The position numbers and the translations under genes were made by a program. A stretch of 61,688 nt of DNA, taken from positions 1 to 61,688 of IMG/VR virus record IMGVR_UViG_3300012894_000058; one strand, 5' to 3'. Shown here in pieces: positions 1,879-59,345 of this stretch (the first letter of the stretch is position 1; each line of letters opens with the position of its first letter). The notes beneath the pieces are model-generated. The model did not search any database and was not told the origin of the DNA. It saw only the letters and a program-made list of their open reading frames with translations. The stretch comes from a virus (Duplodnaviria; Caudoviricetes).

Positions 1879-1966
1879 TTTAGCGGTCCCATTATCGTTT
1901 TCAGAGTGTACTGTCCATTTGCGAGAATGAGGCGCGTCACGTGCTGAACTGTCACGACATACCGGA

Positions 1967-2380: not shown

Positions 2381-2400
2381 AAGATAGGACAGGGAAATAA

Positions 2401-2449
2401 TAAGTGAACTTCACGGCAGCTTTGACGAAGCTGCCGTGAAGTTCACTTA
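2401..2449. terminator. Perfect 22-bp inverted repeat, likely terminator of the metallopeptidase gene
   Basis: TAAGTGAACTTCACGGCAGCTT-TGACG-AAGCTGCCGTGAAGTTCACTTA. Confidence 0.7.
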
Positions 2450-2477
2450 CATTTTATATTTTATTCGCTAGTTGGGA

Positions 2478-4595: not shown

Positions 4596-4773
4596 GCTCA
4601 TCCAATATAAATCACAGGGGACACGCCCGGGTCCACATATGTGTCGTGTGTGCATTTTGGACGGGACACTGATGGCTGCCAGCTGTGCGAGGGGTGTCGA
4701 CAAGGTCACCTCGGAGATGGCGTTCGATTTCCTGGCTGATAGTGTCGAGGCCAAGCTAAACTGACCCGAAACG

Positions 4774-4816
4774 AAACCCCCCCGGCACACCGCACTGAGC
4801 GGGGCCGGGGGTTTTG
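4774..4816. terminator. Probable intrinsic terminator
   Basis: AAACCCCCCCGGC...GCCGGGGGTTTT. Confidence 0.55.
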
Positions 4817-4945
4817 CTGCTCTATCCTGCTGGCTATGACCCACCGCGCTGAAGTCGTCCTGCTGGCGCTTGTTGAACAAAGTCACCGGGCGGCCTGTGC
4901 CTGGCACGAGGGCGTGGAGCGCTGGTACCGGGTCCTGGTCGCCCG

Positions 4946-5215
4946 ATGAGCCGGATGTATTGGACAGTGTCAGAAGCGGCAGATGTGCTGGCTGAGGTGT
5001 ACCTAGTGGATCTGGGGGGACACAGCTTCACAGCCCCGGACCCGGTGACCTTCGAAGCCTTGGCGCGAGCCCTTGACGCTCAGCCAGAGATACTCGAACA
5101 AGTCTGGCAAGCCTGGGACGCTCAACAGATCAAAGCTGGCTGGTCAGAGAGACACCGGGACCAGGCGCGGTACTGGCTCGATGCGGTGGTGATCGGGGGG
5201 CTACCAACAGACTGA
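4946..5215 (+). CDS. Hypothetical protein, paralogue of 1126-1404
   Basis: Full-length similarity to 1126-1404. Confidence 0.75.
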   Translation: MSRMYWTVSEAADVLAEVYLVDLGGHSFTAPDPVTFEALARALDAQPEILEQVWQAWDAQQIKAGWSERHRDQARYWLDAVVIGGLPTD

Positions 5216-5273
5216 AGGCCCGGTGCGACTCATGAAAACTAACTAAACAGGCTTTATGAGTTTTATATGTCAG

Positions 5274-5289
5274 TGTGAGATTGTTCACA
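5274..5289. promoter_or_regulatory. Perfect CRP-family box
   Basis: TGTGA-GATTGT-TCACA, about 30 bp before ATG 5319. Confidence 0.6.
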
Positions 5290-5318
5290 CTGGCATTTTT
5301 TCGTTCCTGGAGGGAAGG

Positions 5319-23740: not shown

Positions 23741-23763
23741 GGATTCACCTCCCGCGTTCCATG

Positions 23764-23790
23764 AAAAAACCCCAGGCAACTGCGCTGGGG
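23764..23790 (-). terminator. Intrinsic terminator just upstream of tape measure gene
   Basis: Minus strand CCCCAGCGCAGTTGCCTGGGG-TTTTTT. Confidence 0.7.
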
Positions 23791-25149: not shown

Positions 25150-25471
25150 CCCGTCCACCTCCTTCTTTGAAGCGCTCCGGCATGAACTCGTGCGGCATGG
25201 CGCTGGCCTTGCGCCGGTTGCATTCGGGGCAGGCGATCACGATGTTTGTCGCCCAGTTGGAACCACCTCGGCTGAGCGGCACAAAGTGCTCGACCTGATA
25301 TTTGTTCCGGCCGCTGAAGAACAGCGGCACCTTGCAGTAATGGCAGAGATGCCCTTGCTTGCCAAGCCGTGCCAGCACGTCGTACTTGTCAAAACTACCG
25401 GGGGCGGCCACGGCGATGGCCCTTCTCTTATGGGTCGCCTTCACCTTGTCTCTGAAGCTGTAGCCCTGCAT
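25142..25471 (-). CDS. Small HNH endonuclease
   Basis: CHYC...VEHFVPLSRGGSNWATNIVIACPECNRRK. Confidence 0.85.
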   Translation of the reverse strand: MQGYSFRDKVKATHKRRAIAVAAPGSFDKYDVLARLGKQGHLCHYCKVPLFFSGRNKYQVEHFVPLSRGGSNWATNIVIACPECNRRKASAMPHEFMPERFKEGGGRDA

Positions 25472-26412
25472 CAGTTCAGCGCCTCGACGGTGATGGTGCG
25501 CTCCGGCTGGGCGGGTTCGCCGTGCAACCACTTGCCGAGCATCTCGTGCGCGTAGTAGGCCAGCAGCTTGAGTTGCATCAGGTCTGAGCCCCGGTGTTCG
25601 AGGAGTTCCGGCCCGTCCTTGTCGAACTTGAGCAGGGTGTCGAGGATTTTTCGCAGCGCGTCCAGCCGGGGCGGGATGTTCGGGTCAGCGCCGGGCCGAT
25701 AGCCGTCAGGCAGGTCAATCACGGGCCGGGCCACTGGCACTGGCGGCGCTCCAATGATCAGCCCGAACTCGGTGTCAGGCCGAGCTGGAGTGAGCTGCTG
25801 AGGCGCTACGGTGTCAACCACTGGTTGACGTTCGAGAAGAGGTGGCGTGGCCTGTTCCTGAGCCTCCTGGGCCAGCGCCTCAGCCTCAGCCGGACGCTTG
25901 CCGATGTTTCCGGTCTGCTGAGTGAAGGTCGCCCCACCGCGCTGAACGGTACGTTCCGTGGGCGCATCTATAACATTGTTAGAGATAAGCTCCTTCCGCA
26001 ACCGCCCTACCGTCATCGCCGAAACGTTTGCCCTTCGGGCTATCTCAGCGTCTACCCATCCTCCCCACTCCTGATCTTTCAGCAGCGTCTCGACGGCGCG
26101 GCGCTTGTCGGCATTGGTGCGCCGCAGCCCGTGGCTGGCATTGGCCCCGACAGCGAAGAGGATGGCGTCCCGTTTCGTGCCCTCCCGCACGTCAGCCTCA
26201 ACTTCCCGGATGCTCAGGTTCTTATACGCCTTGAGCCGGTGAAAGCCGTCAGCGAGCCACAAGGTCGAGTCTTCCTGAAAGACCGCCAGGGCCGGGAGAG
26301 TGCCGCCCTCTTTCACCACCTCCTGATAGTCCTTGAGCACGTCTTCGTTGTAGGGGCCGACGCGCATCTGTGTGCCGCCGTCCGTTCTGATCAGGTCAGT
26401 TCTGAGTTTCAT
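25471..26412 (-). CDS. ParB/Srx N-terminal domain protein with HTH
   Basis: LADGFHRLKAY, N..HGL, DAEIARRANVSAMTVGRLRK. Confidence 0.85.
   Translation of the reverse strand: MKLRTDLIRTDGGTQMRVGPYNEDVLKDYQEVVKEGGTLPALAVFQEDSTLWLADGFHRLKAYKNLSIREVEADVREGTKRDAILFAVGANASHGLRRTNADKRRAVETLLKDQEWGGWVDAEIARRANVSAMTVGRLRKELISNNVIDAPTERTVQRGGATFTQQTGNIGKRPAEAEALAQEAQEQATPPLLERQPVVDTVAPQQLTPARPDTEFGLIIGAPPVPVARPVIDLPDGYRPGADPNIPPRLDALRKILDTLLKFDKDGPELLEHRGSDLMQLKLLAYYAHEMLGKWLHGEPAQPERTITVEALN
25813..25829. promoter_or_regulatory. 17-bp palindrome, copy 3 (intragenic)
   Basis: GTCAACCACTGGTTGAC; 25811-25833 identical to 48782-48804. Confidence 0.65.
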
Positions 26413-26941
26413 TGGGCAGTGCCTCCGGGCTGAAGTCAAAGCGGAAGAGGGGCACGCGCAGGTCTTCTTCCTGCTCGGTGCCGTGGTAGCGGGAGACGTT
26501 CAGGTACAGCCGGGCACGTTTGCTGCGCGTGCTGAGGTCTTTGACGGTGCGGGCGTACTTGCGGGTGGCCTCGACGTGATTCAAGAGCCGCCACTTCTCG
26601 TTGCGCTGGAAGAAGGTGACGTGCAAGCCGAACACGTCGAAAATCACGAACTCGGCGCGGTTCATGGCGCGGCGGGCAGCGGTAGTCGAGATGCCGAGGT
26701 GGCTGGCGAGCGTGTCGGGGTCGAGGCCGTTCTGAAGGCCGCGCTGTTCGAGCAGTTCCAGTGCAGTCAGCCAGCGGGTGCTGCGCTTCTGCTGGCTGAC
26801 TCTCAGGCCTTTGACCGTTTCAGTGAGCTGCTTGTCGCGCATTAGGGTCATGACTTTTCCGATGGAGATCAGGGCGTGCGGGTTGAACAGAACGAGGCGG
26901 CGGCCACGGCGCTGCGGGAGCAGATCGTCACTCTTGGGCAT
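26396..26941 (-). CDS. Hypothetical protein with possible HTH
   Basis: DTLASHLGISTTAARRAM; GGAGA RBS. Confidence 0.65.
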   Translation of the reverse strand: MPKSDDLLPQRRGRRLVLFNPHALISIGKVMTLMRDKQLTETVKGLRVSQQKRSTRWLTALELLEQRGLQNGLDPDTLASHLGISTTAARRAMNRAEFVIFDVFGLHVTFFQRNEKWRLLNHVEATRKYARTVKDLSTRSKRARLYLNVSRYHGTEQEEDLRVPLFRFDFSPEALPNETQN

Positions 26942-28894: not shown

Positions 28895-29860
28895 CTAGCT
28901 TTCTAAAGCTATTTTAGTAAATAACTGTCTTCCGATTTCAGTTATGTTAACTCTGTAAGCCGCAAAGGGTTCGGACGGTCTAACTTGTTCAAATACACCC
29001 ATCAAATAACAAACAGATAGAGCATTGAAAAATATTTCCTCCAGTCCACCTCTTCCTGCCAACTCATCTATGTACGAAGATATCGACTTTCTTAAACTAG
29101 GGATATCATTTTCACTAGAAACGATTCTAATGGCAATCTGATTAAATATAGACGCTGTATTGATAGAAGTGACTTTAGGCTCGGGTTCAGGATTTGCTGA
29201 ATCAGCAACTTTAATATCTATTATCCGATTTGATAACAAATTGTGTATTTTATTAAGTGTTTGATTCTTATCAGAATCTTGCACTAATCTTCTTAGTTCT
29301 GAATTCTCTCGACCAAGTCTTACAAGTTCATCAGTTATTTCGGCGCTCGAAGTTGCCGTCGGTCTGACCCAACCATCTCTTGAACTATCACTAAATGCAT
29401 TACCCAATGCCGTCATAACCATATAAGGTAGCTCAGATTTAGTTTGCCAAAAAGCAATCATTCGATTCTTCGATGATTTTTCTCTGAAAGCCTTTAACTT
29501 GGCAACCGCATCGGCACTTGTGTCTGTCGCTGTACCACCAGGCCAAGAAGCCGCTTCATCGAGTTGAAATACGAGACAGGGCACACCCCTTTGAATTGCG
29601 TAGTCGTACTCCATCTCGGTGAAGCCTAATCCGGTTTCTTCGTTGATCGATCCATACCGTCGAGCGATCAAGAGAACGTAGTAGTCGCTCGCGTCTATGG
29701 TCTTGGTGATGACAGACCACTGGCTAGCGTTGGCAGCACCAAAAGCCTCCATACCTAGAGGAATATGCCCTGCCCGCATGATCGCCTGGATCACTGCGTC
29801 ACGGTGCTCTTTCAGGTCGTTGTATGTGCTGCTGACGAACACCGTGTATCGCTTGTCCAT
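28895..29860 (-). CDS. DUF4062-domain protein
   Basis: VFVSSTYNDLKEHR, GME.F, IDASDYYVLLIARRYGS, TEMEYDYA; GGGAGG RBS. Confidence 0.85.
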   Translation of the reverse strand: MDKRYTVFVSSTYNDLKEHRDAVIQAIMRAGHIPLGMEAFGAANASQWSVITKTIDASDYYVLLIARRYGSINEETGLGFTEMEYDYAIQRGVPCLVFQLDEAASWPGGTATDTSADAVAKLKAFREKSSKNRMIAFWQTKSELPYMVMTALGNAFSDSSRDGWVRPTATSSAEITDELVRLGRENSELRRLVQDSDKNQTLNKIHNLLSNRIIDIKVADSANPEPEPKVTSINTASIFNQIAIRIVSSENDIPSLRKSISSYIDELAGRGGLEEIFFNALSVCYLMGVFEQVRPSEPFAAYRVNITEIGRQLFTKIALES

Positions 29861-29931
29861 GTCCTCCCAGCGTACCGCCCTTCGCCCCGGCTCGTCACGG
29901 ATGTTGTGTGTCTGCATACGAGACTCCCTAT

Positions 29932-29959
29932 AAAAAAGCCCCAGCGCGGTTGCCTGGGA
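29932..29959 (-). terminator. Intrinsic terminator
   Basis: Hairpin CCCCAGCGCGGTTGCCTGGG preceded by A6 on the plus strand. Confidence 0.65.
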
Positions 29960-30019
29960 CTCCTCTTTGATTTAGCTACTTCTAGCTTCTGGCTTGTCAT
30001 ACCGGCGCCGGGGGAACAG

Positions 30020-30694
30020 CTAGGGCGTACCTGTAGTAGCAGTGATTGGTGTTGGTCGATACCTAAGAGTTACGAAAGTGACATACGCGATGCCGCAAAT
30101 AATCAAACTGACAGCTAAGTCTAATAGCAATCCGATTGAACCAATGGCTTTTCCAATATTTACAGCGCTATTTGTATCTAACCATATATATCCACCGTAA
30201 AGGGCAACGAGAAATAAAAATCCCACAACTATATAGCAACCTACTTCAACAGACTTGTGAATAATTCTTATTCTATCATTCTTATGTATTTCCATAATTT
30301 TATCTGTCGTATCGAAAAAGTTTTTGATAAATCCAATTAATATAATTGGAAAACCAAACAGAAATAAGGTCATCTGTCCAACTATAGATTTATAAAGCAT
30401 ATTATTACACTTAAAAGCAATTGATTTGGGAGAGTCGCTTTCGTGCGTAATAGAGTGATATTTTACATAATTTTCGAAGCAGTTCACATATTTATCTACG
30501 GACAAAGACTTTATATTGTATGGATCTAGGTTGGATAAAACTTGCACAAGATAGAGTCCACCTAAGAAAAATAGAATAGCTATTGCTGCTGTAGATAGAA
30601 GAATTATCTTTTCCTGTCGCATCAAAGTAAATCTTGCAGTGGTCACGGCTTGAACATAACTCTTTCGTTGGCCCCAGATAATCGAGGATGTCAT
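30020..30694 (-). CDS. AT-rich multi-pass membrane protein (moron)
   Basis: About four hydrophobic segments; start may be ATG 30622. Confidence 0.7.
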   Translation of the reverse strand: MTSSIIWGQRKSYVQAVTTARFTLMRQEKIILLSTAAIAILFFLGGLYLVQVLSNLDPYNIKSLSVDKYVNCFENYVKYHSITHESDSPKSIAFKCNNMLYKSIVGQMTLFLFGFPIILIGFIKNFFDTTDKIMEIHKNDRIRIIHKSVEVGCYIVVGFLFLVALYGGYIWLDTNSAVNIGKAIGSIGLLLDLAVSLIICGIAYVTFVTLRYRPTPITATTGTP

Positions 30695-30764
30695 CCATAC
30701 CTCTTATTCCCCCAACGCGAACGCCCCCGCATCTCTGCCGGGGGCGTTACCTGTGTTGTGGTCT

Positions 30765-31214
30765 TTACTTCTGGACGGTCTTCTTTGGCCTGCCCGGACC
30801 CTTGGTACTCGTAGCGCGACTGTTCCCGAGCGTCCGACCCTTCTCAAAGCTTGCACCCATCTTCCTTCTCGTCTCGGCGGCTAGTGCCTTGAAGTCCACG
30901 AGGCCCGCTTCGATGGCTTCCGATGTCACCTTGATTTTACTATTAGCCCGCGTCGAACTCAGCTCTTTATTGATCTTCGCAAACCACGCTTCAAATTCCG
31001 GCGTGCCGTCGATAATCAGGTCTTTGGCGGTGCGGGTATATGTCTCGGTGCTTCCCCGCTTGGTGAACTTCTTAGGCAACTCGAAACGTCCCGGGGTATT
31101 TGCTGCATCAATCTCACCTTCACGAACAGCATCTCGTAATCGCTTGATGAAAGTATCGCTACGCTGAGGGTTATGGAGCTTCTTGATCTGATCGCTAAGG
31201 GTGATGTATGGCAC
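30765..31214 (-). CDS. Basic protein with AT-hook-like C-terminus
   Basis: Ends KGPGRPKKTVQK; probable GTG start; bounded by hairpins at about 30720-30748 and 31298-31323. Confidence 0.7.
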   Translation of the reverse strand: MPYITLSDQIKKLHNPQRSDTFIKRLRDAVREGEIDAANTPGRFELPKKFTKRGSTETYTRTAKDLIIDGTPEFEAWFAKINKELSSTRANSKIKVTSEAIEAGLVDFKALAAETRRKMGASFEKGRTLGNSRATSTKGPGRPKKTVQK

Positions 31215-31362
31215 ATAAATATTTAAACACAAATCAAGCAACTTGGGAAGCTAAGGCAGTTTTGAGCGGCGTTCCATAATTATCTTCTCCCATACAGAAA
31301 CCCCAGCATCTCTACTGGGGTTTATCTCATTTCAACTACTTCCATACCAACATACGCCATCT

Positions 31363-33477
31363 TTAATCTCTTGGTTTTTTGCGTTTTCGATCCTTCTTTT
31401 TCGGTAGGTTCCCAATAGACTCTTCCTGTCTAGTAGCTAATAAAGCTTGTTCATCGCTCTTGGGCTTATTTACTACGACACTATTGAGTAGATATTTTCC
31501 ATGTACTGCTTTTAGGTATTCAATTGCGCTATCGTCATCACTTACGTATGCCAACCTTTCTGAGTAAAACTGAAGCCGGCTTCTACACTCTTCAATAATT
31601 TGGCCCCAGCTCTTTGCCCAAATAATCAAATTGCCTTGATCAGAGAAAACTCCCTCGGGTTTTCCAATCTGCGTGCAGGCTCCTCTTGCAACGTCATCCA
31701 TCTCATTTGATACGGCCCATACAGACCAAAAAGTATTTACATCCTTAAATCGCTCATCATTTTTAATTGCTGCTCCATAGCTAACTGCTTGGCTCAGAAC
31801 TTCCATGTCGATTTTTTGCTTGGGTCTTTTAAGTTCAACTATCAAATGATGGCGTTGTTGAGATCTTGCTCTAGGAATTGATCTGGATAACATTAAATCC
31901 ACTATTCCCCTACTGCCGTCCGATCTCAGCACTTCGTCTAGTTCGTATATCTCGCCCTCATCGTCTCCAGCATCATTTAAGTTGTCACGTTTGAGTAAAG
32001 CTATATGTTTTCTAAGAACTTCAGTCAGAGACTGATCATTGACTGTTAAGTGAAATTCCTCGCCAAATATCCATGTCTGCTCTGCTAAAACTTTATGCAA
32101 CTCTCTCCTCTCTAAGAGAGTTTTCTTGGAATCTTTAGAAAACAAAAGCATTTCTAGCCCGTGCAGAAAATCCAATCTATCTGCCACCAATCTTGAAGCG
32201 CTAATTATGGCTGATAAACTAGTTTTATTCAGCAGATTAGATAGTTCTACAACTTTTGCTTCGGGTAAATCAAGTACTTCTTGCACCACTTTTAGTAATT
32301 CAGCTGGGCTTTTTTCCAGTGATTGTTTTATAAGTCGCAGCTGAAATGCCTGCGTTTTGAGATCAGACTTTTCAAAACTAGGCAAAAATTCTTTGACATT
32401 CATGGAAACTACGTCGAAGACTTGGCGCTCAACTTCTTCAGCGGGGGTCTTTGCCTCGCCTGAATATGGATAAATATCCTCAGATTTCCACTGCTGAACG
32501 GCAGTTTGAGCTTTATCCGCAGCACGCTTGCGGAAGTGAGTTCTCACTTCTGTTTTCACGCGCTCAACCACGGGGTCAATCGGAGACTTCAAGCCATCAT
32601 TTTGCCAAAATAGTTGCGATTTATCATAAAGCTCTCTAACAAAATTAGATTTCACGTACGCCGTATAGCTGAAGTTCGGCGCTGGAATCTTTGGATGGAT
32701 TTCTTCAAGAGTGAATCCGGCATCATCACATAGATACACCGCCCTTTCAAGATCCATCCCCCATTCAGTAATTGTCAATTTTACATCAATCTTTCTTCCA
32801 TCATTCAATTCAATATCACTCAAAATATAATCTTTAGACTCTATTTCGTATTCTTTTGGGTCAATGGTCAAACCATCGTATACGACACTTACTTCAGGAT
32901 ATTGACGCAGGTAGGGAGCAAGCCTCCTGGTAATTTGAAGTCGACTTTCAGACGAACGCAACCCTCTGGCTTTCTCGGTTAAATTACTAATTTTAACAGT
33001 TGTAGAGGTCTCTTCGGCATTTGTTTCAAGATTGGTAGTCGCGATAGGCCGTTTAATGGCGCTCACATTACTTTCAATCGAAATAGCATATAAAGACGAG
33101 CCAACATGATCTCTGGAAACCGTATGCCAGACAACATCAGCTCCTAGGTTGTGGGCTTGGAAACGCCCCTTACCCTCCTTGCCATGCAGCATGCGTTTTT
33201 CTTGACGGGTCCGGACTGATGCAGCCTTCCAGGAGCCGCCTAGATTCTCAAATGCCGCCAAATCCCGATTTGAGATTCCGGTACCGTTATCCCAAACCTC
33301 AATGGAGTCAAGACCACCAAGCAGATTATTGGCAAATGTGACCTCTACTTCTTGGGCATCAGCATCTAGGCCGTTCCAAATCAACTCACACAACGAAGCG
33401 ACTGGGGTTTGCCCCCCAGAAATCTTTTGCAGGTGATCATCTTGAACGTTGACTGAGAGCGTGCGCCTGTTCTGCAT
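31363..33477 (-). CDS. GHKL (HATPase_c) ATPase fused to C-terminal PD-(D/E)xK nuclease-like domain
   Basis: ELIWNGLDA, DNGTG, GKEGKGRF; C-terminal VDLML...IVELKRP; GGAGA RBS. Confidence 0.85.
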   Translation of the reverse strand: MQNRRTLSVNVQDDHLQKISGGQTPVASLCELIWNGLDADAQEVEVTFANNLLGGLDSIEVWDNGTGISNRDLAAFENLGGSWKAASVRTRQEKRMLHGKEGKGRFQAHNLGADVVWHTVSRDHVGSSLYAISIESNVSAIKRPIATTNLETNAEETSTTVKISNLTEKARGLRSSESRLQITRRLAPYLRQYPEVSVVYDGLTIDPKEYEIESKDYILSDIELNDGRKIDVKLTITEWGMDLERAVYLCDDAGFTLEEIHPKIPAPNFSYTAYVKSNFVRELYDKSQLFWQNDGLKSPIDPVVERVKTEVRTHFRKRAADKAQTAVQQWKSEDIYPYSGEAKTPAEEVERQVFDVVSMNVKEFLPSFEKSDLKTQAFQLRLIKQSLEKSPAELLKVVQEVLDLPEAKVVELSNLLNKTSLSAIISASRLVADRLDFLHGLEMLLFSKDSKKTLLERRELHKVLAEQTWIFGEEFHLTVNDQSLTEVLRKHIALLKRDNLNDAGDDEGEIYELDEVLRSDGSRGIVDLMLSRSIPRARSQQRHHLIVELKRPKQKIDMEVLSQAVSYGAAIKNDERFKDVNTFWSVWAVSNEMDDVARGACTQIGKPEGVFSDQGNLIIWAKSWGQIIEECRSRLQFYSERLAYVSDDDSAIEYLKAVHGKYLLNSVVVNKPKSDEQALLATRQEESIGNLPKKKDRKRKKPRD

Positions 33478-33557
33478 GTAGGTCTCCAGAGTGCCCCCCA
33501 GCCTGAGGCCGGGGGTGATAGCGCACGCTAGCATGCTTAGCTCATCTTGAATCAGAA

Positions 33558-37731: not shown

Positions 37732-38328
37732 TCAGACCCCGTGCTCGGCAGCCAACGCCAGCAGGCCGTCACGGCGCAGGGAGGCGTCGTAGGTCACGCC
37801 CTTCCCGTCAAGCGCGGCCTTCAGCTCAGCCTTGGTGCGCTGATCGGTGTCGCCAGGCGCAGGCGTCTCAGGGTCGGAGGTGGCTGCCTGGGCTGTCGCC
37901 AGTTGTGCCTGCAGGTCGCTGATCTGAGTGCGGAAGGCGTTCGCATCATTCGCGGCGGCATCGCGGTAGCCGGTCATGGTCGTCAGCTGCTGCTTCAGGT
38001 CATCACGCTCGGTCTGCCACTTGGCCGTCTTGCTCTCCAGCTCCGCCTTGACCTCGCCGAGCTGGCCGGTGAGCAGGTCTCGCGCCTCGGTGAGCCGCCC
38101 AATTTCCTCGCTCTTGCCCTGCTCACGGCCCAGGGCCTCGTTGCGCTCAGTCGTGACCTCGGCCAGCTGCAGCGCCTGGGTCTGGCTGTCCTGCACCACG
38201 CGGTTGTACTCGTCACGGCTGACCGTATCGGCCACCGCAGGCTTGGCCTGGTTGAGCAAGGTGCCGTCTTCGTGGACTGGCTGACCCTTCTCGTTGACAA
38301 AGCCGCCGTCCTGCCAGAAGACGCTCAC
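37732..38328 (-). CDS. Coiled-coil protein with HeH/Rho-N-like C-terminus
   Basis: Heptad region; TKAELKAALDGKGVTYDASLRRDGLLAL. Confidence 0.7.
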   Translation of the reverse strand: MSVFWQDGGFVNEKGQPVHEDGTLLNQAKPAVADTVSRDEYNRVVQDSQTQALQLAEVTTERNEALGREQGKSEEIGRLTEARDLLTGQLGEVKAELESKTAKWQTERDDLKQQLTTMTGYRDAAANDANAFRTQISDLQAQLATAQAATSDPETPAPGDTDQRTKAELKAALDGKGVTYDASLRRDGLLALAAEHGV

Positions 38329-39467
38329 AGGAAGCTCGCGTCTTCAGCGGGAGGAGCGACGTAGGTGGCGACCGTAGCACCGGCCGGGCGAGGCCCGAAG
38401 TACAGCGCTGCGCCACCAGCACGATTGCTGACACCGAACCCGAAGGAATCTTCCACGTACTGTGCGAACAGGTTCACGACGCCGTTCATCCCCTTGATGC
38501 GCAGACCCTGAAGCATCGGGATCTTGCTGATGCGGCGCTTGATGACCTTCGGCCCGTTCAGGTTCAGGCACAGCGCGTAGTTCTGGAGCGCCCAGGGCTT
38601 GATGAAAACCGGGTAGCCACCAGCGGTGTATCCGATGAACTTGTCATCAGTCCGGGTGTTGTCGAGGTTGTCGAGTGCAACCGCGCCAGTCAACGGGTTG
38701 ATGACCTGGGCGACCGTGGCCGCCACGAAGTTCGCCATCGCCCGGAACTTCGACGCGTCCACCTGATTGATGTAGATCACGATGTTGTTGCCGGTGCTGT
38801 GCTCGCCGACGTTGTTCGCCAGCGTGTCGAGATCACTGGCCGTCAGGTTATCCACGGCGGTGTAGTGGGTGTGGGTCCCGTCGAACGACTGCCCGCTCGG
38901 GCCGACGTTCGGGATCTCGCCGTCGCCGTTGTAGAGCGGCATCACGTATTGACCGGTCAGGATCTGGTATCCCGTCGCCACATCCACGTACTCACGCAGG
39001 ACGCGCTGCACGGGCGTGTACAGAGCGGCAGCCAGGGCGATGCGCACCTCGTTGGTGTGGGCGAGCTGAATGCTGTCCATCTGCGTGACCATGGTGCCGA
39101 TGCTGGCCGCTGCCATGAAGTCCTCGGTCCAGCCAGTGGCGTCCTGAAAGCGGTCGAGCGGGAAGCCGCGCCCGTAGTTCTTACCCGCCTTCTGGGTGCG
39201 GGCGAGGCCGTACTCGTCGACCGGAGCCATGCGGCGGTTGATGGTGCCGGGCGAGGCTTCGGTGCGCTCGGTGGTGGTCTCGGTCAGTGTGGCCAGCGAG
39301 CTGTTCAGGCTGTAGTTGTACGCGCCGAGCTGCTGGCTGACCACGGCGAGCGCGTTGTTCAGGCCGAAGGTGTAGATGCTGAGGCCGTTGGCGCGCAGGT
39401 CTTGCAGGCTCAGGACACCGGTCTGCCGGGCCTTGATCTGCGGGACGATGATTCTGGGTTTCGTCAT
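38325..39467 (-). CDS. Major capsid protein
   Basis: 380 aa from MTKPRII, AGGAG RBS; follows scaffold and decoration genes. Confidence 0.8.
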   Translation of the reverse strand: MTKPRIIVPQIKARQTGVLSLQDLRANGLSIYTFGLNNALAVVSQQLGAYNYSLNSSLATLTETTTERTEASPGTINRRMAPVDEYGLARTQKAGKNYGRGFPLDRFQDATGWTEDFMAAASIGTMVTQMDSIQLAHTNEVRIALAAALYTPVQRVLREYVDVATGYQILTGQYVMPLYNGDGEIPNVGPSGQSFDGTHTHYTAVDNLTASDLDTLANNVGEHSTGNNIVIYINQVDASKFRAMANFVAATVAQVINPLTGAVALDNLDNTRTDDKFIGYTAGGYPVFIKPWALQNYALCLNLNGPKVIKRRISKIPMLQGLRIKGMNGVVNLFAQYVEDSFGFGVSNRAGGAALYFGPRPAGATVATYVAPPAEDASFL

Positions 39468-39504: not shown

Positions 39505-39891
39505 TCAGAGGGCGGTGAGGCCGAGCGCGATGATCGCCAAGTCGAACCGACTGACCGGGCGGAACACCTTGGTGGTGGCCCCATCGTCGAACGTGCCGAC
39601 CGTCGAGGCCAGGCCGTAGAGCTTGCTGCCGTCGAGCGTGGTGTCGGTGGCACGGAAGCGGACACCGGTGCCGAAGACCGTGACCGGCTGACCGGCATAG
39701 GTCTGGCGCGGGCTGCTCACGCCATCGAACTTCTGCCCGGCGATGGCCGGGAACACCCGGAAGTCGCTGGAGATGGTGACAGGCGTGCAGGGCGCGAGGT
39801 CCGCACCGGCGCGGAGGCCAGCGATGTTGAACGACCGCTGGGCGGCAGTGCCGTCGATATCGGCGGTGGGGCTGAGGGTGAACTGTGTCAT
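39505..39891 (-). CDS. Putative head decoration protein
   Basis: 128 aa between scaffold and capsid; AAGGAG RBS. Confidence 0.65.
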   Translation of the reverse strand: MTQFTLSPTADIDGTAAQRSFNIAGLRAGADLAPCTPVTISSDFRVFPAIAGQKFDGVSSPRQTYAGQPVTVFGTGVRFRATDTTLDGSKLYGLASTVGTFDDGATTKVFRPVSRFDLAIIALGLTAL

Positions 39892-39914: not shown

Positions 39915-40721
39915 TTAGATGCTTCCAGCGCCGCCGACCAGCTGCTGACCTGGCGTGCCGCTGAGCTTCACGCCGCCGCCGACGTTCGACTCGCTGGCCC
40001 GCTGATTCGGCAGGCTGGGCGAGGTGAATGTCGGCTGCTGGTTGGGGTTCTGCTGTTCCTGCTGCTGGGTCTCGGTCTTCTTCAGGCTGGCCTCGAAGCC
40101 CTTCACGTCCGGGTGCTGATTCAGCGCCGTGAACGCGGTTTCCTTACCGGCCGCGTCGAGCGTGGGGATTCCCCAGGTCTCGACTTCCTTCTCCTGCCCG
40201 TCTTCGCCGGTCACCTTGACGCTGCGCTTGACCGGCAGGCCCTGTTCGTCACGAAGAATCTTCGTGAGCCTGCCTGCGTCGTACCCGAGCGCGTCGGCTG
40301 CATCGCGGTAGGCCAGTTCACGCTTGAGCTTGATGCCTTCCGCGCCGCCCTCGGCGTCCTTGCGCAGCTGAGCCACCTGTTCAGCGACTTTGGCCGGGTC
40401 CAGTCCGGCCTTCTTCAACGCGGCGGTGAGCTGCTCGTTGGTCACTCCGGCCTCACTGAGGGTCCGGTATGCGGCCTGAGCGGCGTCGGATGCCGCGTCA
40501 GCGTCTTCAGGCGCAACAGGCAGCTTGAGCGCCTCGACCAATTTGGTGTAGGCGCGCTGGAAGGCGCGGGCACCGCTGTTCTGCCCCTCGCGCTGCACCA
40601 CGTCCCGCTGAGCGGCGTTGAGTGCTGCAGTGGCGTCCCCATCATGGGCGGCCAGATACTCAGCGACGGACTTGGCGAGGGCGAGGTGCAGGTAGACGGT
40701 AATGCGGCGGTTCTGGGTCAT
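39915..40721 (-). CDS. Putative scaffold protein
   Basis: Ala/Glu/Lys helical with low-complexity tail; after portal. Confidence 0.7.
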   Translation of the reverse strand: MTQNRRITVYLHLALAKSVAEYLAAHDGDATAALNAAQRDVVQREGQNSGARAFQRAYTKLVEALKLPVAPEDADAASDAAQAAYRTLSEAGVTNEQLTAALKKAGLDPAKVAEQVAQLRKDAEGGAEGIKLKRELAYRDAADALGYDAGRLTKILRDEQGLPVKRSVKVTGEDGQEKEVETWGIPTLDAAGKETAFTALNQHPDVKGFEASLKKTETQQQEQQNPNQQPTFTSPSLPNQRASESNVGGGVKLSGTPGQQLVGGAGSI

Positions 40722-40871
40722 GGTGATACTCCCCCGGCCCGACTCGGGCAGCGGTTTAAGCCGGATCACTGTCCGGGCAGAAGGTGGACGCCTGCCAGTG
40801 GCGGGCGCAGTCGGGGCCGGGCTTACCAGCCGAGCGGGAAACTTTCCCAGTCCGGTGTGCCAGCCGTACGG

Positions 40872-42557
40872 TCAGGTGTTTGTGGCGGCCTGCTGATCTT
40901 CTGTAGGCGACGGTGCAACCGCCGGTTCAGGCGGCGCGTTCTCGTCGGCGATGCGGGCATCCTCTGCGGCCTGGTCGGATACGCCGGTGGTGCTCTGGAG
41001 GCGCTGACGACTCCAGACCTTCGCCTGCATCAAGGACAGTCCAGCGGCGATAGCCTCGGGGCTAGGATCGAATACTTGCTGGCGACAAGTCACGCTGGCC
41101 CGCAGGCTCCGGTACTTGCCCGGCTGACCCTGCACCATCGCGCTGATCTCGAGCGCGAACTCGATCAACTCCCGGATCAGGTGCTCGACGGCCGTGGCGT
41201 AGCGTGCGGTGGCCCGCAAGAAGCTGCCGGTGGCCACTTCTCTGCTTCGGCCGCTCGCCGTGGCCTTGTCATCCATCAGCACGAAGCGCTGCCGGAGGGC
41301 CGAGTAGATGTTGCTCTCAGCGATGTTGATGGCCGCCTGGATGGCCTTCGGGTCGGCCGGGTCGATCTTGCCGTAGCTCGCACCCCGGTAGGGCGTCTCT
41401 TCGACGATCTCGACCGGCTGCCCGTTCGGGCCGGTGCTGCGGGTGATGGTGGTGGTCACGCTCGGCTGGTAGAACATCTGCGTTCCGGGCCCGGCCTGCA
41501 CCGTCTGCTCAGGAATGCCCGGAACCACCGTGCCATCGGAGAGCACGCTCGGTTCGGTGCCCCCGGTGGTTGGCGGGTCGATACCGATGCCGTAAATCTG
41601 GGCAAAGCCCGCGAAGTGGGTGTTACGGCTGAGCAAGGTCTGCGCCACGTTCAGGGCGTCCTGGTTGCTCAGCACGTCCCGGGTCACGGCACCGCGCGGG
41701 AACTTCAGCTCGAACAGCCAGAGCCGCCCGCCCAGGTCCATCGGGTCAGACGGTTTGCGCTCGGCGATCTCCTGCCCACCGATGCTCAGAGTGGCCAGCA
41801 CCGTCTTACCGTTTTCGTCGACGTGCGTGACTTCCCACTCAGTTTTCAGGTCGTTCGAAGAGCGATAGATCACCTGCGTGACACCGATCCGCTCCAGGCT
41901 CTCGGGATCGGTGTACACCCCGCTCGTGCCCACGTCCGGTAGGACCAGGTGCAGCGGTTCCAGCGACTTCAAAGGGTCGGTGATCAACTTCAGCTTGCCA
42001 CTGGCATCCTTATAGCGCTGCGGAATCCGGGGCCGGACAGCGGCGCGGCCGTGCGCGATGGCCGAGACCAGCAGGTTTTGCAGGGTGGTCGGCAGGTCGC
42101 GTTGGTCCCACCAGGCGGTGATGATCGCCTCGGCCTCATCGAGCAGCGCCTGCTCTTCTTTGGGAAGCGGCTTGGTCTCGTCGCCGCTGTCCTGATCGCT
42201 CACCAGTGCCCAGTCGGCCTCGTCGGCACCCACTCCATCGGCCAGGAACTCCACGCCCTCGAGCGTGATGTTCCGGGAGTTGAACGACTTGACCAGCGCT
42301 TTCTGCATCTCGCCGTAGCGTTTGTGCCCTTGCGGCACCATCGGCCCCACCCAATAGAGCGTGCCGCTCCCGTCGATCTCGGGGCCTTCCTGTCCAGGGA
42401 CGGGCAGCTGAGGCATTCCGAGAAGTGGCAGGCCTGCTGACCTGGGGCCGAGCTGATACCCGGCAAGGTAGTCGCTGATGCGCTCGGTGAGCGGGCTGTT
42501 GAACGTGCCGAGGGCGTAGGTCAGTTCGACCAGATTGGGATTGTTGGGGTCGAGCAC
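40872..42557 (-). CDS. Portal protein
   Basis: 561 aa after terminase; ASGRSRE and C-terminal EDARIADE typical of SPP1-like portals. Confidence 0.8.
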   Translation of the reverse strand: MLDPNNPNLVELTYALGTFNSPLTERISDYLAGYQLGPRSAGLPLLGMPQLPVPGQEGPEIDGSGTLYWVGPMVPQGHKRYGEMQKALVKSFNSRNITLEGVEFLADGVGADEADWALVSDQDSGDETKPLPKEEQALLDEAEAIITAWWDQRDLPTTLQNLLVSAIAHGRAAVRPRIPQRYKDASGKLKLITDPLKSLEPLHLVLPDVGTSGVYTDPESLERIGVTQVIYRSSNDLKTEWEVTHVDENGKTVLATLSIGGQEIAERKPSDPMDLGGRLWLFELKFPRGAVTRDVLSNQDALNVAQTLLSRNTHFAGFAQIYGIGIDPPTTGGTEPSVLSDGTVVPGIPEQTVQAGPGTQMFYQPSVTTTITRSTGPNGQPVEIVEETPYRGASYGKIDPADPKAIQAAINIAESNIYSALRQRFVLMDDKATASGRSREVATGSFLRATARYATAVEHLIRELIEFALEISAMVQGQPGKYRSLRASVTCRQQVFDPSPEAIAAGLSLMQAKVWSRQRLQSTTGVSDQAAEDARIADENAPPEPAVAPSPTEDQQAATNT

Positions 42558-43012
42558 CGCATCACCTCCTCGGGGGTCAGTTCGGTCAGGGTCAGGTCGC
42601 GGGCCATCGCCCAGACGCGCAGGCGATCACCGGTCACGATCGGGTAGTAGACGTGGGTCTGGACGGGCTCCATCTGCGGGAACATCTCGCAGGCGGCGCT
42701 GCGCCAGTCGGTGAGGTCTTCGTCGCTGTACTCGCTGGGCGTGCCGACCGGGTGCGAGTGCCAGAAACCGAGGTAGCGCAGGCCGGATTCGTTCAGCTCA
42801 CGCTCGTGCAGCGGATCCTGCAGGGCGAAGAGGCCAGGAAGTCGGATGTCGAGCGGGCCGGGTCGGGTGAAGGTCATGACATACGCCGAGTGAAGGCCGG
42901 TCAGGAAGCCCAGCAGCAGACCGCCCTGTTCGAGCTGTTCCATGCCCATGCTGGCCAGATCGGGCGGAACGGTCAGGCCCAGGTGGCCGAGGGTGTTGGC
43001 GCTGAATCTCAT
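42521..43012 (-). CDS. JAB/MPN+ metalloprotease (Prok-JAB, Cap3-like)
   Basis: EQGGLLLG, TRPGPLD.R, YLGFWHSHP.....YSDED...W; ATGA overlap with terL. Confidence 0.85.
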   Translation of the reverse strand: MRFSANTLGHLGLTVPPDLASMGMEQLEQGGLLLGFLTGLHSAYVMTFTRPGPLDIRLPGLFALQDPLHERELNESGLRYLGFWHSHPVGTPSEYSDEDLTDWRSAACEMFPQMEPVQTHVYYPIVTGDRLRVWAMARDLTLTELTPEEVMRCSTPTIPIWSN

Positions 43013-44370
43013 CCCTCCACACTCCGGCGGCGGACGGTCGTGACAGTGGTCGGGATGGTCTCGGGCTGCAGCATCAGTTCCGTCAGGGCCCACACTGCCG
43101 CGTCCATCCGGTCGGGTGACTTCTCGCCTGGCACCCAGGTGGCCATCTGGCCTTCGAGGTCCTTGAACACCCCAACGTGCTGCACCTTCATCTGCACGTA
43201 CAGCGAACTGATCGGCTCAGCTCGCGTCTGCTTACCCCGGCTGGCCCAGACGGTGATGACGTTTGCCGTCTTGTCGATCGTGCGAATGGTGTTCTCCACC
43301 ATGTCGCCGCCGTTGTTCCGTTCTGGCACGATCGCGTCGGCTCGGTAGTACTTGTAGGCGTCGAGCGCCACAGTGGCCCACTCGGTGGGGCTGTAGTTGC
43401 CGCTTAAGTCGGCCAGGATGTACGCCCGGCCAAGTGCGTCCCTGCCCGCCACCACGATGCCGGTCTCGGCGCTGTCGTCACTCTGGCTGGCCTGCGGGTC
43501 GATGGCGACCACGATCCTCACCAGGTCGGGCAGCTGTTCGAAGGTGGTGCGGAAACCCTCGCGGTTGAACATGGCGTATTGCCATAACGCGCCGGGCGTG
43601 TCCTCGAGCAGCTCACCATCCAGCTCCTGCCGACCGAGGCGCGTGCCTTCGTACTTGCTGATGACGTTGCGCTTGAAGGTGCTGGAGAGGTTGTCGAGGT
43701 TGTCGGCCGTCTTGCCCCCAGTCAGCACCGTGCTCTCTTCTTTGCGCAGCTCGCGGATCAGCCGCACCGGCCTGGGCGTGCCGGTGAGGATCACGCGCGG
43801 ATCTCTGCCGAGGCGCAGCCCGAACAGCAGGTTGGTCCAGGTGGTGTCCTCTGCCGTTCCTTTATCGGCGTCATTCCAGGTGGCCGGTTCATCACCCCAG
43901 GCACCATGGTGCTGTGGTCCTCGGAGCTTGCGAGGCTTCTCACTGGAGTAGATCTTGAAGCGCGCGCCGTTCTTGAGGAACAGTTCGCCGAGGCTTCGAT
44001 TCCAGGCCAGCTCGACGCTACCTCCTCTCAGCTCGCTCTCGTCGAGCACGCCGAGCAGACCGGACTCGCCTTCGACCATCACGTCTCGCCCGTCGGCAGC
44101 GGTCTGTGCCACCAGAGCGAAGCGGCCCCGTGGGGTGGTGCGGGCCCAGTCAGCGATGGTCTCGGCTCCGGTTCTCGTCTTGCCGAAGCCTCGCCCGGCC
44201 AGGATCAGCCACGTCAGCCACTCGCCTTCCGGTGGGAGCTGGTTGGGTCTGGCGGTTTCCAGCCAGCGCATCCGGGCGCTGAGGCCGTGACGCTTGGGCG
44301 GTGGACGGCGGGGGGTGATCCTAGCGGCTCGCCGCTGCGTCGCCTTGATCCGGCTCACCATCTCCAGCAT
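43009..44370 (-). CDS. terL: Terminase large subunit
   Basis: Walker A GRGFGKT, AWGDE, TGTP, VVAIDP, SPDRMDA. Confidence 0.95.
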   Translation of the reverse strand: MLEMVSRIKATQRRAARITPRRPPPKRHGLSARMRWLETARPNQLPPEGEWLTWLILAGRGFGKTRTGAETIADWARTTPRGRFALVAQTAADGRDVMVEGESGLLGVLDESELRGGSVELAWNRSLGELFLKNGARFKIYSSEKPRKLRGPQHHGAWGDEPATWNDADKGTAEDTTWTNLLFGLRLGRDPRVILTGTPRPVRLIRELRKEESTVLTGGKTADNLDNLSSTFKRNVISKYEGTRLGRQELDGELLEDTPGALWQYAMFNREGFRTTFEQLPDLVRIVVAIDPQASQSDDSAETGIVVAGRDALGRAYILADLSGNYSPTEWATVALDAYKYYRADAIVPERNNGGDMVENTIRTIDKTANVITVWASRGKQTRAEPISSLYVQMKVQHVGVFKDLEGQMATWVPGEKSPDRMDAAVWALTELMLQPETIPTTVTTVRRRSVEG

Positions 44371-46878: not shown

Positions 46879-47178
46879 CTAACCTTCTGGCCGGATGACG
46901 TCTGGCATCTCGTCGTGCCTTAGGTCGTTCTGGCTACCCCACCGTGTGTCAGCCAGCCCGAGATGCCGCATGTAGAACGGGTCGCTGAGCGGCAGGCAGC
47001 CGTACTGTTCCCTGATCAGCACCGCGTACTGGCGCTCGGCCTCCAGATGGGTGCAGTCCGCATCGATCCCGGAGGCGTCCACCCGGGCCAGCGCTTCAGC
47101 GGTCTGCCGCTGCTGATCCCGGGCGGTGCGACGCTGAGCCATGGCCCGCTGTGCCTGCTGGCGCTTTCGACGGCTCAT
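46879..47178 (-). CDS. Hypothetical protein
   Basis: 99 aa, ATGA overlap with rusA. Confidence 0.6.
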   Translation of the reverse strand: MSRRKRQQAQRAMAQRRTARDQQRQTAEALARVDASGIDADCTHLEAERQYAVLIREQYGCLPLSDPFYMRHLGLADTRWGSQNDLRHDEMPDVIRPEG

Positions 47179-47786
47179 GGCTCGAACAGCGTGGCGTCGA
47201 GCGCGGTGATGGTCACGGCTACTTGCCCGCCCTTGAGGACCGGCCCGCGCTGCACGGTGAGCCGGTCGATCAGGCTGTCATCTGCCCAGACGCCGGCATG
47301 CGTCAGGGCATCTTCGAGCGCCTTAGGGATGTTGCTGAGGTCACGGGCGCGGCGGTCTGGCGGGCTGACGTGCAGGTGCAGGGCAAGGCGGGAACCGGCA
47401 GGCGTGGTCGGGTTGCCAGCCTGCTCGACCTGGCGCATCACGCTGCGGCGGTATTCCCTTCCCTTCTCGCTGAGCAGCACGCGGACCTGCGGCTTACCCT
47501 TCACGGTCATGACGATGCTGCGCCAGATGCTGTTGAGGGAAGGCGGGTACGGCAGGGTCAAGCAGAGAGAGCCGGATGCAGGTGCGAACTTAAGAGAACG
47601 CATTGCTTGAGTTCGGGCAGGGATTTCGACGCTCTGTGAGAGGACAGGCCTGATCAGCAGAGGCACGCCCAGGAAGTCGGCCATCTCCGCTCGCCGGCCC
47701 TGATCCTGAATCGTGCCGAGGTACCGGCGGGCCGCGTCCTGGGTCGGCCAGCGGGAACGCCAGCGCTCGGAAGTCGGGGCGGTCAT
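47175..47786 (-). CDS. rusA: RusA Holliday junction resolvase
   Basis: LPYPPSLN, PDRRARDLSNIPKALEDAL..AGVWADDS. Confidence 0.9.
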   Translation of the reverse strand: MTAPTSERWRSRWPTQDAARRYLGTIQDQGRRAEMADFLGVPLLIRPVLSQSVEIPARTQAMRSLKFAPASGSLCLTLPYPPSLNSIWRSIVMTVKGKPQVRVLLSEKGREYRRSVMRQVEQAGNPTTPAGSRLALHLHVSPPDRRARDLSNIPKALEDALTHAGVWADDSLIDRLTVQRGPVLKGGQVAVTITALDATLFEP

Positions 47787-58201: not shown

Positions 58202-58710
58202 CACTCTCTACACTCACGGCGGATGCGATGGTCATGACGCATGAGTCAGGGCTGGACGATCCCCGCGTGTTGGGAGATCGTCTGCGTCAGTACATCCGGC
58301 GGGCCGGCAAAACACAGGCTAAAGTTGCAGACGAGGTAGGTATGGACCCTACCTATCTCTCGCAGTTGGTGAACGGTCGAGTTAATTGGGTGAAGAGCGA
58401 CTACTTTCGTGCACTAGTGAACGCACTTGACATACCAGTTGATGACATCGCTGAACTCAACCCGAGTGCTGTCTTTTCGGTGACTGCCGAAAAGCAGGGC
58501 GAGCAGAAAAAACCAAAGCGCCCGATCTCGGACAGCCTGAAGGAAGCCGCTGCCATCTACGGCGGGCGGTTCCCTGATTTGGCTACCCCGCTTTGGCAAG
58601 ATTACTTAGAGTCATTTCGCCCGCGTGGATTGAGAGCCGATACCCCAGAAGCATGGCTGGACCTCTACCGCGACCTCGCCAAACACGGAATCACACCCGG
58701 CGGAAATTAA
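58192..58710 (+). CDS. XRE repressor with DdrO-like C-terminal domain
   Basis: HTH TQAKVADEVGMDPTYLSQLVNG; C-terminal TPLWQDYLESFRPRGLRADTPEAWLDLYRDL; start uncertain. Confidence 0.85.
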   Translation: MLIPLSTLTADAMVMTHESGLDDPRVLGDRLRQYIRRAGKTQAKVADEVGMDPTYLSQLVNGRVNWVKSDYFRALVNALDIPVDDIAELNPSAVFSVTAEKQGEQKKPKRPISDSLKEAAAIYGGRFPDLATPLWQDYLESFRPRGLRADTPEAWLDLYRDLAKHGITPGGN

Positions 58711-59345
58711 TGCGAGATGCCACCTTCGCCTACCTCAACCGCCTCGTGGCAGAACACAAGAAGATCGGATACACCACCGACCCCTACCGGGCAGCGGCTC
58801 TAAAAGGGATTCGAATCATCAAGGGTGACAGCAACTGTGCCAGCGCTGGCCCTCCTGCTGTGATTGTGCTGACGGAAGATCGCTATCTCGCGCGGCAGCG
58901 GTTCACGATCTTCCACGAGATTAACCACGTCGAGATGCAGCGGTATGAGCTGGAAGACGCCATTGCTGCCGAGGTGGACGAAGACGACGCTGACGCCCAC
59001 ATCGAAGCTGTTGCCAACTTCGGAGCTGGGCTGATGCTGATGCCTGAACCGATGATCCGGAACGTTCTCCGAGAATACGGCCACACTCCAGAGGCCGTAC
59101 TCAAGCTTATGGGTGTGGGACGGGTATCTCTACCCGCTGCAATGCGCCGTTACGTCAGCCATGACCTTGAGGCTGAGCGGGCTGCCTTTATTACCAGCGG
59201 CACTTATATCGCCGACACGGCCACCTGCGGTCGAGCACTGCCCTTCATCCGATACGACCGTGTGCCGGAAGTGCAAACGGTTGTTCCAGACGCATCCTTG
59301 ATGGTCGTGTCTCCGAAGAAAGTGTTGGGCGTGGTGTCGTGGTGA
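58710..59345 (+). CDS. ImmA/IrrE-family metallopeptidase
   Basis: RQRFTIFHEINH, E..AN.GA..MLMP, VS..AA.RR; TAATG coupling to repressor. Confidence 0.9.
   Translation: MRDATFAYLNRLVAEHKKIGYTTDPYRAAALKGIRIIKGDSNCASAGPPAVIVLTEDRYLARQRFTIFHEINHVEMQRYELEDAIAAEVDEDDADAHIEAVANFGAGLMLMPEPMIRNVLREYGHTPEAVLKLMGVGRVSLPAAMRRYVSHDLEAERAAFITSGTYIADTATCGRALPFIRYDRVPEVQTVVPDASLMVVSPKKVLGVVSW

Follow-up and report, generated by a model that had tools for sequence, protein, structure and literature searches.

A Cap3-like JAB gene between the terminase and portal genes in a lineage of Deinococcus phages

We analyzed the IMG/VR virus record IMGVR_UViG_3300012894_000058 (Duplodnaviria; Caudoviricetes), a linear stretch of 61,688 bp that was taken whole and is called the window hereafter. 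Its completeness is estimated by CheckV at 91%, and absences in it are not absolute. Between the genes of the large terminase (terL) and of the portal protein, the window encodes a protein of the JAB/JAMM type with 163 amino acids (aa), named P0001. This protein is an intact JAMM/MPN+ enzyme for which peptidase activity is predicted, and its nearest characterized relative in sequence and in fold is Cap3, from the cyclic oligonucleotide-based antiphage signaling system (CBASS), not gpK of phage lambda or RadC. It is neither a Cap3 orthologue nor a recently captured Cap3. The gene is fixed next to the portal gene across a lineage of Deinococcus siphophages and prophages, where it evolves under purifying selection. 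Since it is a conserved gene of the terL-portal interval and is found in the same place in other phages, it is probably a late enzyme built into the head and packaging module, which either serves head assembly or protects it.

The open reading frame (ORF) of the JAB gene runs on the minus strand from 43012 to 42521. Its ATG and the stop codon of terL share the sequence ATGA at 43009-43012, as read directly from the DNA, and its last 37 nucleotides (42521-42557) overlap the portal ORF, which starts with a GTG at 42557. The coupling to terL and the overlap with the portal start that were described in the original prediction are therefore present. The portal of a relative (locus L003) begins with MRMDPNNPTLFELTYALGT, which backs the GTG at 42557 as the portal start of the window. 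For the JAB gene itself, the ATG at 43012 is preferred over an upstream GTG at 43093 because all 23 homologues (23/23) begin at that point, 21 of them with MR, MK, VR, or VN and the other two with MI/MS or M-. The terL-JAB junctions of the relatives are equally tight, with ATGA in L003, GTGA (a GTG start) in L002, and TGATG in L038. No promoter-like or terminator-like site was found on the minus strand between 44768 and 37500. The gene has a G+C content (GC) of 0.654, and of 0.854 at third codon positions (GC3), which are the values of terL, portal, scaffold, and major capsid protein genes; the composition is thus phage-like, as had been proposed, in a record that also has low-GC islands. The elements of the gene are the following:

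42521..43012, minus strand: JAB/JAMM gene, Cap3-like Prok-JAB of 163 aa (PF14464, PADLOC CBASS JAB models, fold match by AlphaFold2 (AF2) model and VIA)
43009..43012, minus strand: ATGA overlap of the terL stop and the JAB start
42929..42931, minus strand: codon of E28, the general-base Glu of JAMM enzymes, inside EQGG (invariant in 24/24 sequences)
42842..42868, minus strand: codons of T49-R-P-G-P-L-D-I-R57, the T.PGP.D.R motif (alignment)
42716..42760, minus strand: codons of H85-S-H87...S96-x-x-D99, zinc ligands and catalytic Ser/Asp block, HxHx8SxxD (24-sequence alignment)
42521..42557, minus strand: overlap of the JAB 3' end and the portal 5' end, 37 nucleotides
43012..43047, minus strand: C-terminal tail of terL, TVTTVRRRSVEG, a peptide conserved in L002, L003, and L038

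The assignment to the family rests on several kinds of profiles. P0001 matches Pfam Prok-JAB (PF14464) with 29.3 bits for a gathering score of 25, and a six-frame search of the DNA gives 29.5 bits. In an alignment of 24 sequences, E28, H85, H87, and D99 are invariant and S96 is conserved in at least 90%. The same alignment shows T49, P51-G52-P53, and D55 to be invariant, and likewise Y80, G82, and W84-H85-x-H87-P88. This bears out the intact JAMM residues and the motifs T.PGP.D.R and YLG.WH.HP that had been read from the sequence, but the spacing needs correcting to HxH-x8-S-xx-D, which exceeds the canonical x7 by one residue. The HxHx8SxxD block aligns with HTHP...PSxxD of 9ild_A, the Cap3 chain of a Cap3-CD-NTase complex, across a one-residue gap. 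The TxPGPxDxR motif is also found in the consensus of 71 Cap3-like representatives, its PG..D.R part is common to 9ild_A, and it may bind the tail of the substrate. The seven closest JAB homologues share a C-terminal extension, (R/P)CSxPT..(W)SN.

PADLOC has 27 models that match P0001, the best being the CBASS 'JAB' model at 1.4e-13; no PHROG family matches the protein. The AF2 model has a mean predicted local distance difference test (pLDDT) of 85.6, and its best Foldseek match is 9ild_A (E 6.8e-09, TM 0.73/0.78). VIA also ranks 9ild_A first, at Z 18.1 and a root-mean-square deviation of 2.0 over 136 residues with 21% identity, followed by a Rpn11 homologue, JAMM1 (5lda_A, 12.7), and Rpn11 at Z 12.9-12.6, and by BubCD (9ea4) at 11.7. 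The bacterial deubiquitinase 8tyx_B, which acts on ubiquitin-like proteins (Ubl), comes at rank 29 in Foldseek with TM 0.49, a weaker match than Cap3 in the same superfold. The resemblance to Cap3 put forward in the original prediction is therefore real, and the protein does not group with gpK or RadC. The former scores 6.6 bits on the hidden Markov model (HMM) of the family, compared with 146 for P0001, and RadC is absent among the Pfam matches of P0001 at E 0.01 or better. Viral models named RadC give weak Foldseek matches to P0001 (TM 0.39-0.43).

Closeness to Cap3 does not amount to orthology. Against NF050170, the NCBIfam equivalog model of Cap3, P0001 scores 21.6 bits, below the cut-off of 200. 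An exhaustive search of 1.84 billion representatives returned 76 matches at 1e-3 or better and just two at 1e-10 or better. Five of these (P0028-P0030, P0076, and P0079), all long multi-domain proteins, were left out of the alignment and tree of 71 representatives; P0028-P0030 are regarded as composition matches to short repeated stretches of the query. Among the 71 aligned remote representatives, 64 match the Cap3 model with E-values of 1e-10 or below (lowest, 8.1e-71). In a quick IQ-TREE phylogeny of 127 rows, the JAB family of the window forms its own clade of 31 rows (SH-aLRT 99) on a stem of 1.03 substitutions per site. The Cap3-like representatives and three of the four loci in CBASS context fall in a separate group of 67 rows, with weakly supported deeper nodes (support 44). 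Because the family has its own long-stemmed clade and P0001 fails the equivalog cut-off, we conclude that Cap3 was not recently captured. Close relatives are scarce in phage collections: a tblastn search of 50,697 phage records gave no match for P0001, P0025, the Cap3-like representative P0062, or the portal of the window. The search for related loci found none with P0001 alone, and with the alignment of the JAB family none in viral contigs and one CBASS locus in genome contigs. With the portal it found none, or the contig of L011 alone.

Where relatives can be seen in their context, the gene stays in place. The order terL-JAB-portal was found in the four clade members (4/4) with visible context, namely the window, L002, L003, and L011/L038, which answers the question of presence at this position raised by the original prediction. 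The JAB protein is 90% identical to P0001 in L002 and 53-55% in L003; that of L011/L038 is 56% identical to P0026, a homologue with 43% identity to P0001. The portal of the window is 90% (L002), 61% (L003), and 49% (L038) identical to the product of the gene that follows JAB, and the identities of JAB and portal move together (90 vs 90% and 53 vs 61%). Homologues of the portal make up 31 further clusters, the named ones being from Deinococcus ruber, D. phoenicis, and D. fonticola, and a search with the JAB profile gave 43 clusters, including D. fonticola, D. kurensis, and D. phoenicis. Of the 22 portal clusters with a longest contig of 3.9 kb or more, 16 occur together with a JAB cluster, as inferred from equal contig sizes and not from visible contexts (15 by an exact match of the longest contig size, with L002 seen directly). 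In D. phoenicis, portal and JAB are orf0026 and orf0027. No relative was shown to be without JAB, and the remaining six of the 22 portal clusters are not shown to lack it. The ratio of nonsynonymous to synonymous substitution rates (dN/dS), computed on the single pair of the window and L002, is 0.14 for JAB, 0.12 for the portal, 0.13 for the scaffold, 0.22 for the major capsid protein, and 0.43 for a 128-aa ORF of the module.

The terminase behaves differently along its length. The terL bodies of L002, L003, and L038 have no BLAST match to that of the window at E 1e-3, while a 10-residue tail of terL is conserved as the peptide xTTxR[RP]RSV, with synonymous changes in the DNA. The four tails are:

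window: TVTTVRRRSVEG
L002: MTVTTVRRRSVVE
L003: IVTTSRPRSVAL
L038: ITRTTTRPRSVA

As far as these sequences go, the inherited unit is the terL tail with JAB and portal, while terL bodies are swapped. The same holds elsewhere, since a high-GC clade of actinobacterial type (see below) has two types of terL with one common tail, ..VGSYR (..F[KRQ]V[GR]SY[RY] over L007-L033). Terminase C-termini dock on portals, and the conservation of the tail can therefore be explained without JAB: it is probably a portal-docking peptide that marks the joint of recombination. Dual coding was ruled out as the cause of the conservation, as homologues start at the ATG or GTG of the junction and the tail varies synonymously.

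The association with head genes extends beyond this lineage. A DNA pattern for YLGxWH[ST]HP retrieved 30 IMG/VR loci, many of them near-duplicates, every one with a JAB homologue, and 19 of the 30 adjoin terL, portal, or connector genes. This head context was recognized in the following ways:

by terL similarity: L007, L012, L016, L017, L019, L020, L021, L032, L033
by PHROGs: L031, L007, L005, L006, L011, L013, L014
by Pfam: L015
by identity or synteny with those loci: L010, L026, L030

L022, of the same clade, was counted outside the 19, and L008/L024 and L027/L028 are outside all classes. Type II CBASS accounts for four of the 30 loci (L009 and L034 by Pfam, L029 and L018 by identity or gene sizes), and the true CBASS contexts (L001, L009, and L034) differ from that of the window. 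In L023, the JAB gene is near a baseplate/lysozyme-like gene. L025 (4051-6180 of an IMG/VR contig with GC 0.38) encodes a 709-aa protein in which the JAB is C-terminal, after a long N-terminal region; it may be an E1-JAB fusion like NCBIfam 6A-MBL cap2_3.

Some seven distinct JAB lineages have a head context, the clade of the window included, and in the tree head-module JABs form several deep groups, not one. The gene order differs among them: terL (phrog_979)-JAB-small basic ORF-portal (phrog_145)-MuF-scaffold-major capsid protein in the high-GC clade, and portal-like-x-JAB-protease (phrog_458)-major capsid protein in L006/L010. One JAB of the high-GC clade has a sole tblastn match among the 50,697 phage records, in MW202482 (GenBank, uncultured podovirus), with the order terL-portal-carboxypeptidase-JAB-x-MuF. 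Mycobacteriophage PBI1 encodes a canonical JAMM protein, gp11, two genes downstream of gp9, which has the size of a portal. Very basic ORFs of 68-70 aa, rich in Arg and Lys, accompany some of these genes, either between JAB and portal (L031 10467-10676 and L030 1910-2122) or between portal and JAB (gp10 of PBI1, L036 7922-8128). They have no GG tail and no PHROG family. More generally, the small ORFs (68-106 aa) beside JABs were ruled out as Ubl, either on their Arg/Lys-rich composition or on the lack of a GG tail.

In the window, the JAB gene is surrounded by the other genes of the head module:

43009..44370, minus strand: large terminase (Pfam Terminase_6N and Terminase_6C; phrog_979 at 7.8e-34)
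40872..42557, minus strand: portal protein (phrog_104 at 1.3e-05; weak SPP1_portal match below the cut-off)
39915..40769, minus strand: scaffold-like protein, 284 aa, likely start Met17 (helical AF2 model; homologues in L002 and L038)
39505..39891, minus strand: 128-aa ORF in head-decoration position (homologues in the same position in L002 and L038; role from position alone)
38325..39461, minus strand: major capsid protein (phrog_3990 at 6.4e-34)

Residues 12-353 of the major capsid protein match positions 18-369 of the phrog_3990 profile, which leaves no extra delta domain. The 284-aa and 128-aa proteins have no family match in Pfam or PHROG. The AF2 model of the former is mostly helical with low confidence (pLDDT 49), and its C-terminus reads ..LVGGAGSI in the window and ..AVGAGTV in L038. 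With no family and a helical model, this product of the gene after the portal resembles an ordinary scaffold. A protease hidden in it is unlikely on these grounds, though the model is too poor for a fold search. A predicted complex of portal and JAB (score 0.00, mark 0.32) argues neither for nor against binding.

We also searched the record for the partners that a JAB enzyme might need. Six-frame profile searches of the 61.7 kb gave no match for SMODS (CD-NTase), ThiF (E1), ThiS/MoaD-type Ubl, or NlpC/P60, in agreement with the original prediction, which had seen none of these genes. Searches for Prok-E2_B were uninformative because the controls were silent. The same approach gave no match for the prohead proteases S78, S49, and ClpP or for MuF; S77 had no match either, again with silent controls, and this search is likewise uninformative. 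In the control genome of D. radiodurans, the only species used, SMODS has no match, and Prok-JAB and ThiS/MoaD do.

What, then, does the enzyme do? We tentatively favor a role within the module, in which JAB may process a phage head or packaging protein at the portal vertex. In this reading, a zinc-dependent JAMM (iso)peptidase, active and built like Cap3, is encoded in the head and packaging block. It would grip the extended C-terminal tail of its substrate, by analogy with every characterized JAMM enzyme, and might cleave the peptide or isopeptide bond where that tail ends. The substrate would be one of the phage's own low-copy head or packaging proteins at the portal vertex, and a cut at a single site, for processing or release, would take place while procapsids are assembled or DNA is packaged. 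JAB might in this way replace the prohead protease that the phage lacks. The intact and conserved catalytic residues, the purifying selection, the coupling to terL and portal, the fixation in the lineage, and the recurrent position in head modules are all in line with such a role, as is the lack of a match to S78, S49, and ClpP proteases or MuF in the record. Considering the portal-linked fixation, the co-divergence, and the recurrence in unrelated phages, a function intrinsic to the module fits the data at least as well as anti-defense cargo does.

Several observations weigh against this role. Among the proteins of this phage no substrate motif is conspicuous, and none has an obvious Ubl-like xxGG tail; the terL tails end in EG, VE, AL, or A. 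L006/L010 carry JAB together with a separate protease (phrog_458), and head modules of the SPP1 type, as in the actinobacterial-type clade, normally work without a protease; JAB is therefore no general replacement of the prohead protease. This also qualifies the head-maturation protease that the original prediction had kept as its alternative: the lack of S78, S49, and ClpP and the scaffold-like next gene speak for it, and the co-existence of JAB and protease in L006/L010 weakens this support. Pseudomonas phage PaMx28 (L039) has a portal 45% identical to that of L031, yet has no JAB; nrdJ and a DNA ligase gene (693-3394) fill its terL-portal interval, which means that this slot can hold dispensable cargo. 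Also on this side, the co-occurrence count relies on contig sizes and dN/dS on one pair of sequences. Finally, the nearest characterized relatives are deconjugases of immune systems, not morphogenetic enzymes.

This last point leads to the other serious candidate, a doubtful but quite conceivable one, that the protein is a counter-defense deconjugase. It would be a late viral analogue of Cap3, possibly packaged near the portal and injected, that removes what the host has conjugated (primed CD-NTase in type II CBASS, or Ubl of the Bil/Bub type on virion proteins) and so blunts immunity or rescues heads under assembly. Cap3 is indeed the closest characterized family, both by the PADLOC match and by the 64 of 71 representatives that match its model, and 9ild_A is the best solved structure (Z 18.1 vs 12.9 for the next), with TxPGPxDxR common to both. 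The enzyme is an orphan, in a record with no match for E1, CD-NTase, or Ubl, and its patchy distribution at a wider scale suits accessory cargo. Published work was also counted on this side: Cap3 reverses the conjugation of CD-NTase (commentary on Jenson 2023), head proteins trigger CBASS at a late stage, and Bil conjugates Ubl to the central tail fiber. However, the separate clade with its stem of 1.03 and the score of 21.6 vs 200 bits exclude a recent capture, and the gene is fixed and co-diverges with the portal, without the variation in presence that is typical of anti-defense genes. A cytoplasmic anti-CBASS role leaves the recurrent position in head modules of unrelated phages unexplained. 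Moreover, D. radiodurans, one species only, has no match to SMODS, and no phage-encoded Cap3 or JAB counter-defense was found in the literature searched. Thus, of the late deconjugase of the original prediction, the Cap3-like orphan co-translated with late packaging genes stands, and we found no evidence for the counter-defense role. Sequence data cannot separate the processing of a phage protein from counter-defense.

A related and unlikely scenario would make the gene a prokaryotic counterpart of viral deubiquitinases within the program of capsid assembly. Host immune conjugation would attack exposed C-terminal tails or lysines, and a portal-side Cap3-like deconjugase, carried for this reason by phages of several phyla and made or perhaps packaged with the portal, would strip the adducts of E1/E2 systems (Cap2-, Bil/Bub-type) from the packaging machinery, with the terL tail being guarded.

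It is a good deal less probable that the enzyme is a host-takeover peptidase acting on a host substrate of the Ubl or sulfur-carrier type, for example MoaD-type fusions or conjugates, and altering physiology late in infection. There is a precedent in Deinococcus itself, where the JAMM protein DR0402 cleaves a linear MoaD-MoaE fusion after the C-terminal Gly of MoaD (PMC8832034), and D. radiodurans has matches to Prok-JAB and ThiS/MoaD. However, Cap3 (Z 18.1) is a far closer fold match than the JAMM1 type (5lda_A, Z 12.7), the chemistry of molybdenum cofactor and sulfur carriers has no link to a position between terL and portal, and the same arrangement in phages of other phyla is left unexplained. 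Least probable of all, and very much so, is that the protein, rather than being a peptidase, works on nucleic acid in the manner of RadC and assists packaging, by analogy with the HNH endonucleases beside terminases. The position next to terL counts for it, as do the proposal that RadC-clade JABs are nucleases (PMC5512222, PMC3482391) and the adjacency of HNH and terminase genes (PMC3592412). Against it, Pfam gives no match to RadC at E 0.01 or better, and P0001 is a Cap3-type protein in both sequence and fold, of the kind that binds Ubl tails, with a conserved PGP motif; JAB also follows the portal, not terL, in PBI1, MW202482, L005, and L006.

The literature searched, in which subscription journals are mostly uncovered, contained no functional study of a phage head-module JAB. 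The Prok-JAB family and the annotation 'JAB/MPN' in actinobacteriophages are known. New are the Cap3-like clade with its fixed place between terL and portal in phages of Deinococcus, the extent of the association with head modules, and the linkage of tail, JAB, and portal. JABs of the Cap3 type are known as regulators within CBASS operons, and here the same architecture is a stable head and packaging gene of phages. Either outcome would be novel: a JAMM peptidase step in head assembly or packaging of tailed phages, of which we found no described example, or, if true, the first phage-encoded deconjugase directed against bacterial ubiquitin-like immunity.

The window has other cargo outside the head module. 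A low-GC island on the minus strand (28895-33534, GC 0.43-0.48 vs about 0.65), between the tail and head regions, encodes a 340-aa DUF4062 protein, two ORFs without family (224 and 158 aa), and a 723-aa protein with HATPase_c_3 (GHKL/MORC-like), and it resembles defense-type cargo. Another low-GC stretch (2478-6557) encodes an 809-aa astacin (M12A) metallopeptidase (minus strand) and, adjacent to it, a 433-aa protein with an NPCBM domain (plus strand), unusual cargo for a phage. PADLOC gave no match for the proteins of the 28895-33534 island or for the astacin. The tape measure protein (17447-23779, minus strand, 2,110 aa) matches phrog_196 (baseplate hub) and phrog_4928 over residues 750-955. 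Further genes encode a ParB-like protein (25471-26439, minus strand), a RusA resolvase (47175-47786, minus strand), and a peptidase of the IrrE/M78 type (58593-59345, plus strand), which is typical of prophage immunity regions.

Set beside known systems, the protein is most like Cap3 (9ild_A; NF050170), with which it shares a single domain of about 160 aa, the JAMM residues, TxPGPxDxR, and YLGxWH[ST]HP. It differs from Cap3 by its score (21.6 vs 200 bits), its spacer (x8 vs x7), and its separate clade, and its gene lies in a phage head module with no match to CD-NTase or Cap2, not in a defense operon. The gp11 protein of PBI1 (cluster D; actinobacteriophage JAB/MPN) is also a stand-alone JAMM protein of about 150 aa beside the portal, in the region of terL, portal, and minor capsid genes, but it scores 21 bits vs 146 for P0001 on the clade/Cap3 HMM, lacks the PGP motif, and comes after the portal. 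Lambda gpK is likewise encoded by a phage morphogenesis gene with a JAB motif of the HSHP type; unlike P0001, it reaches 6.6 bits on the family HMM and is a tail-module protein with a fused C40 (NlpC/P60) peptidase. The Bil/Bub deubiquitinases (8tyx_B, 9ea4), JAMM1 (5lda_A), and DR0402 have the JAMM fold and motif, and their cleavage site follows the C-terminal tail of a beta-grasp protein. Their structural match is weaker (TM 0.49, Z 11.7, and Z 12.7 for Bil, Bub, and JAMM1, respectively), and, in contrast to Bil (BilC), the record of the window has no match to a cognate ThiF or ThiS/MoaD.

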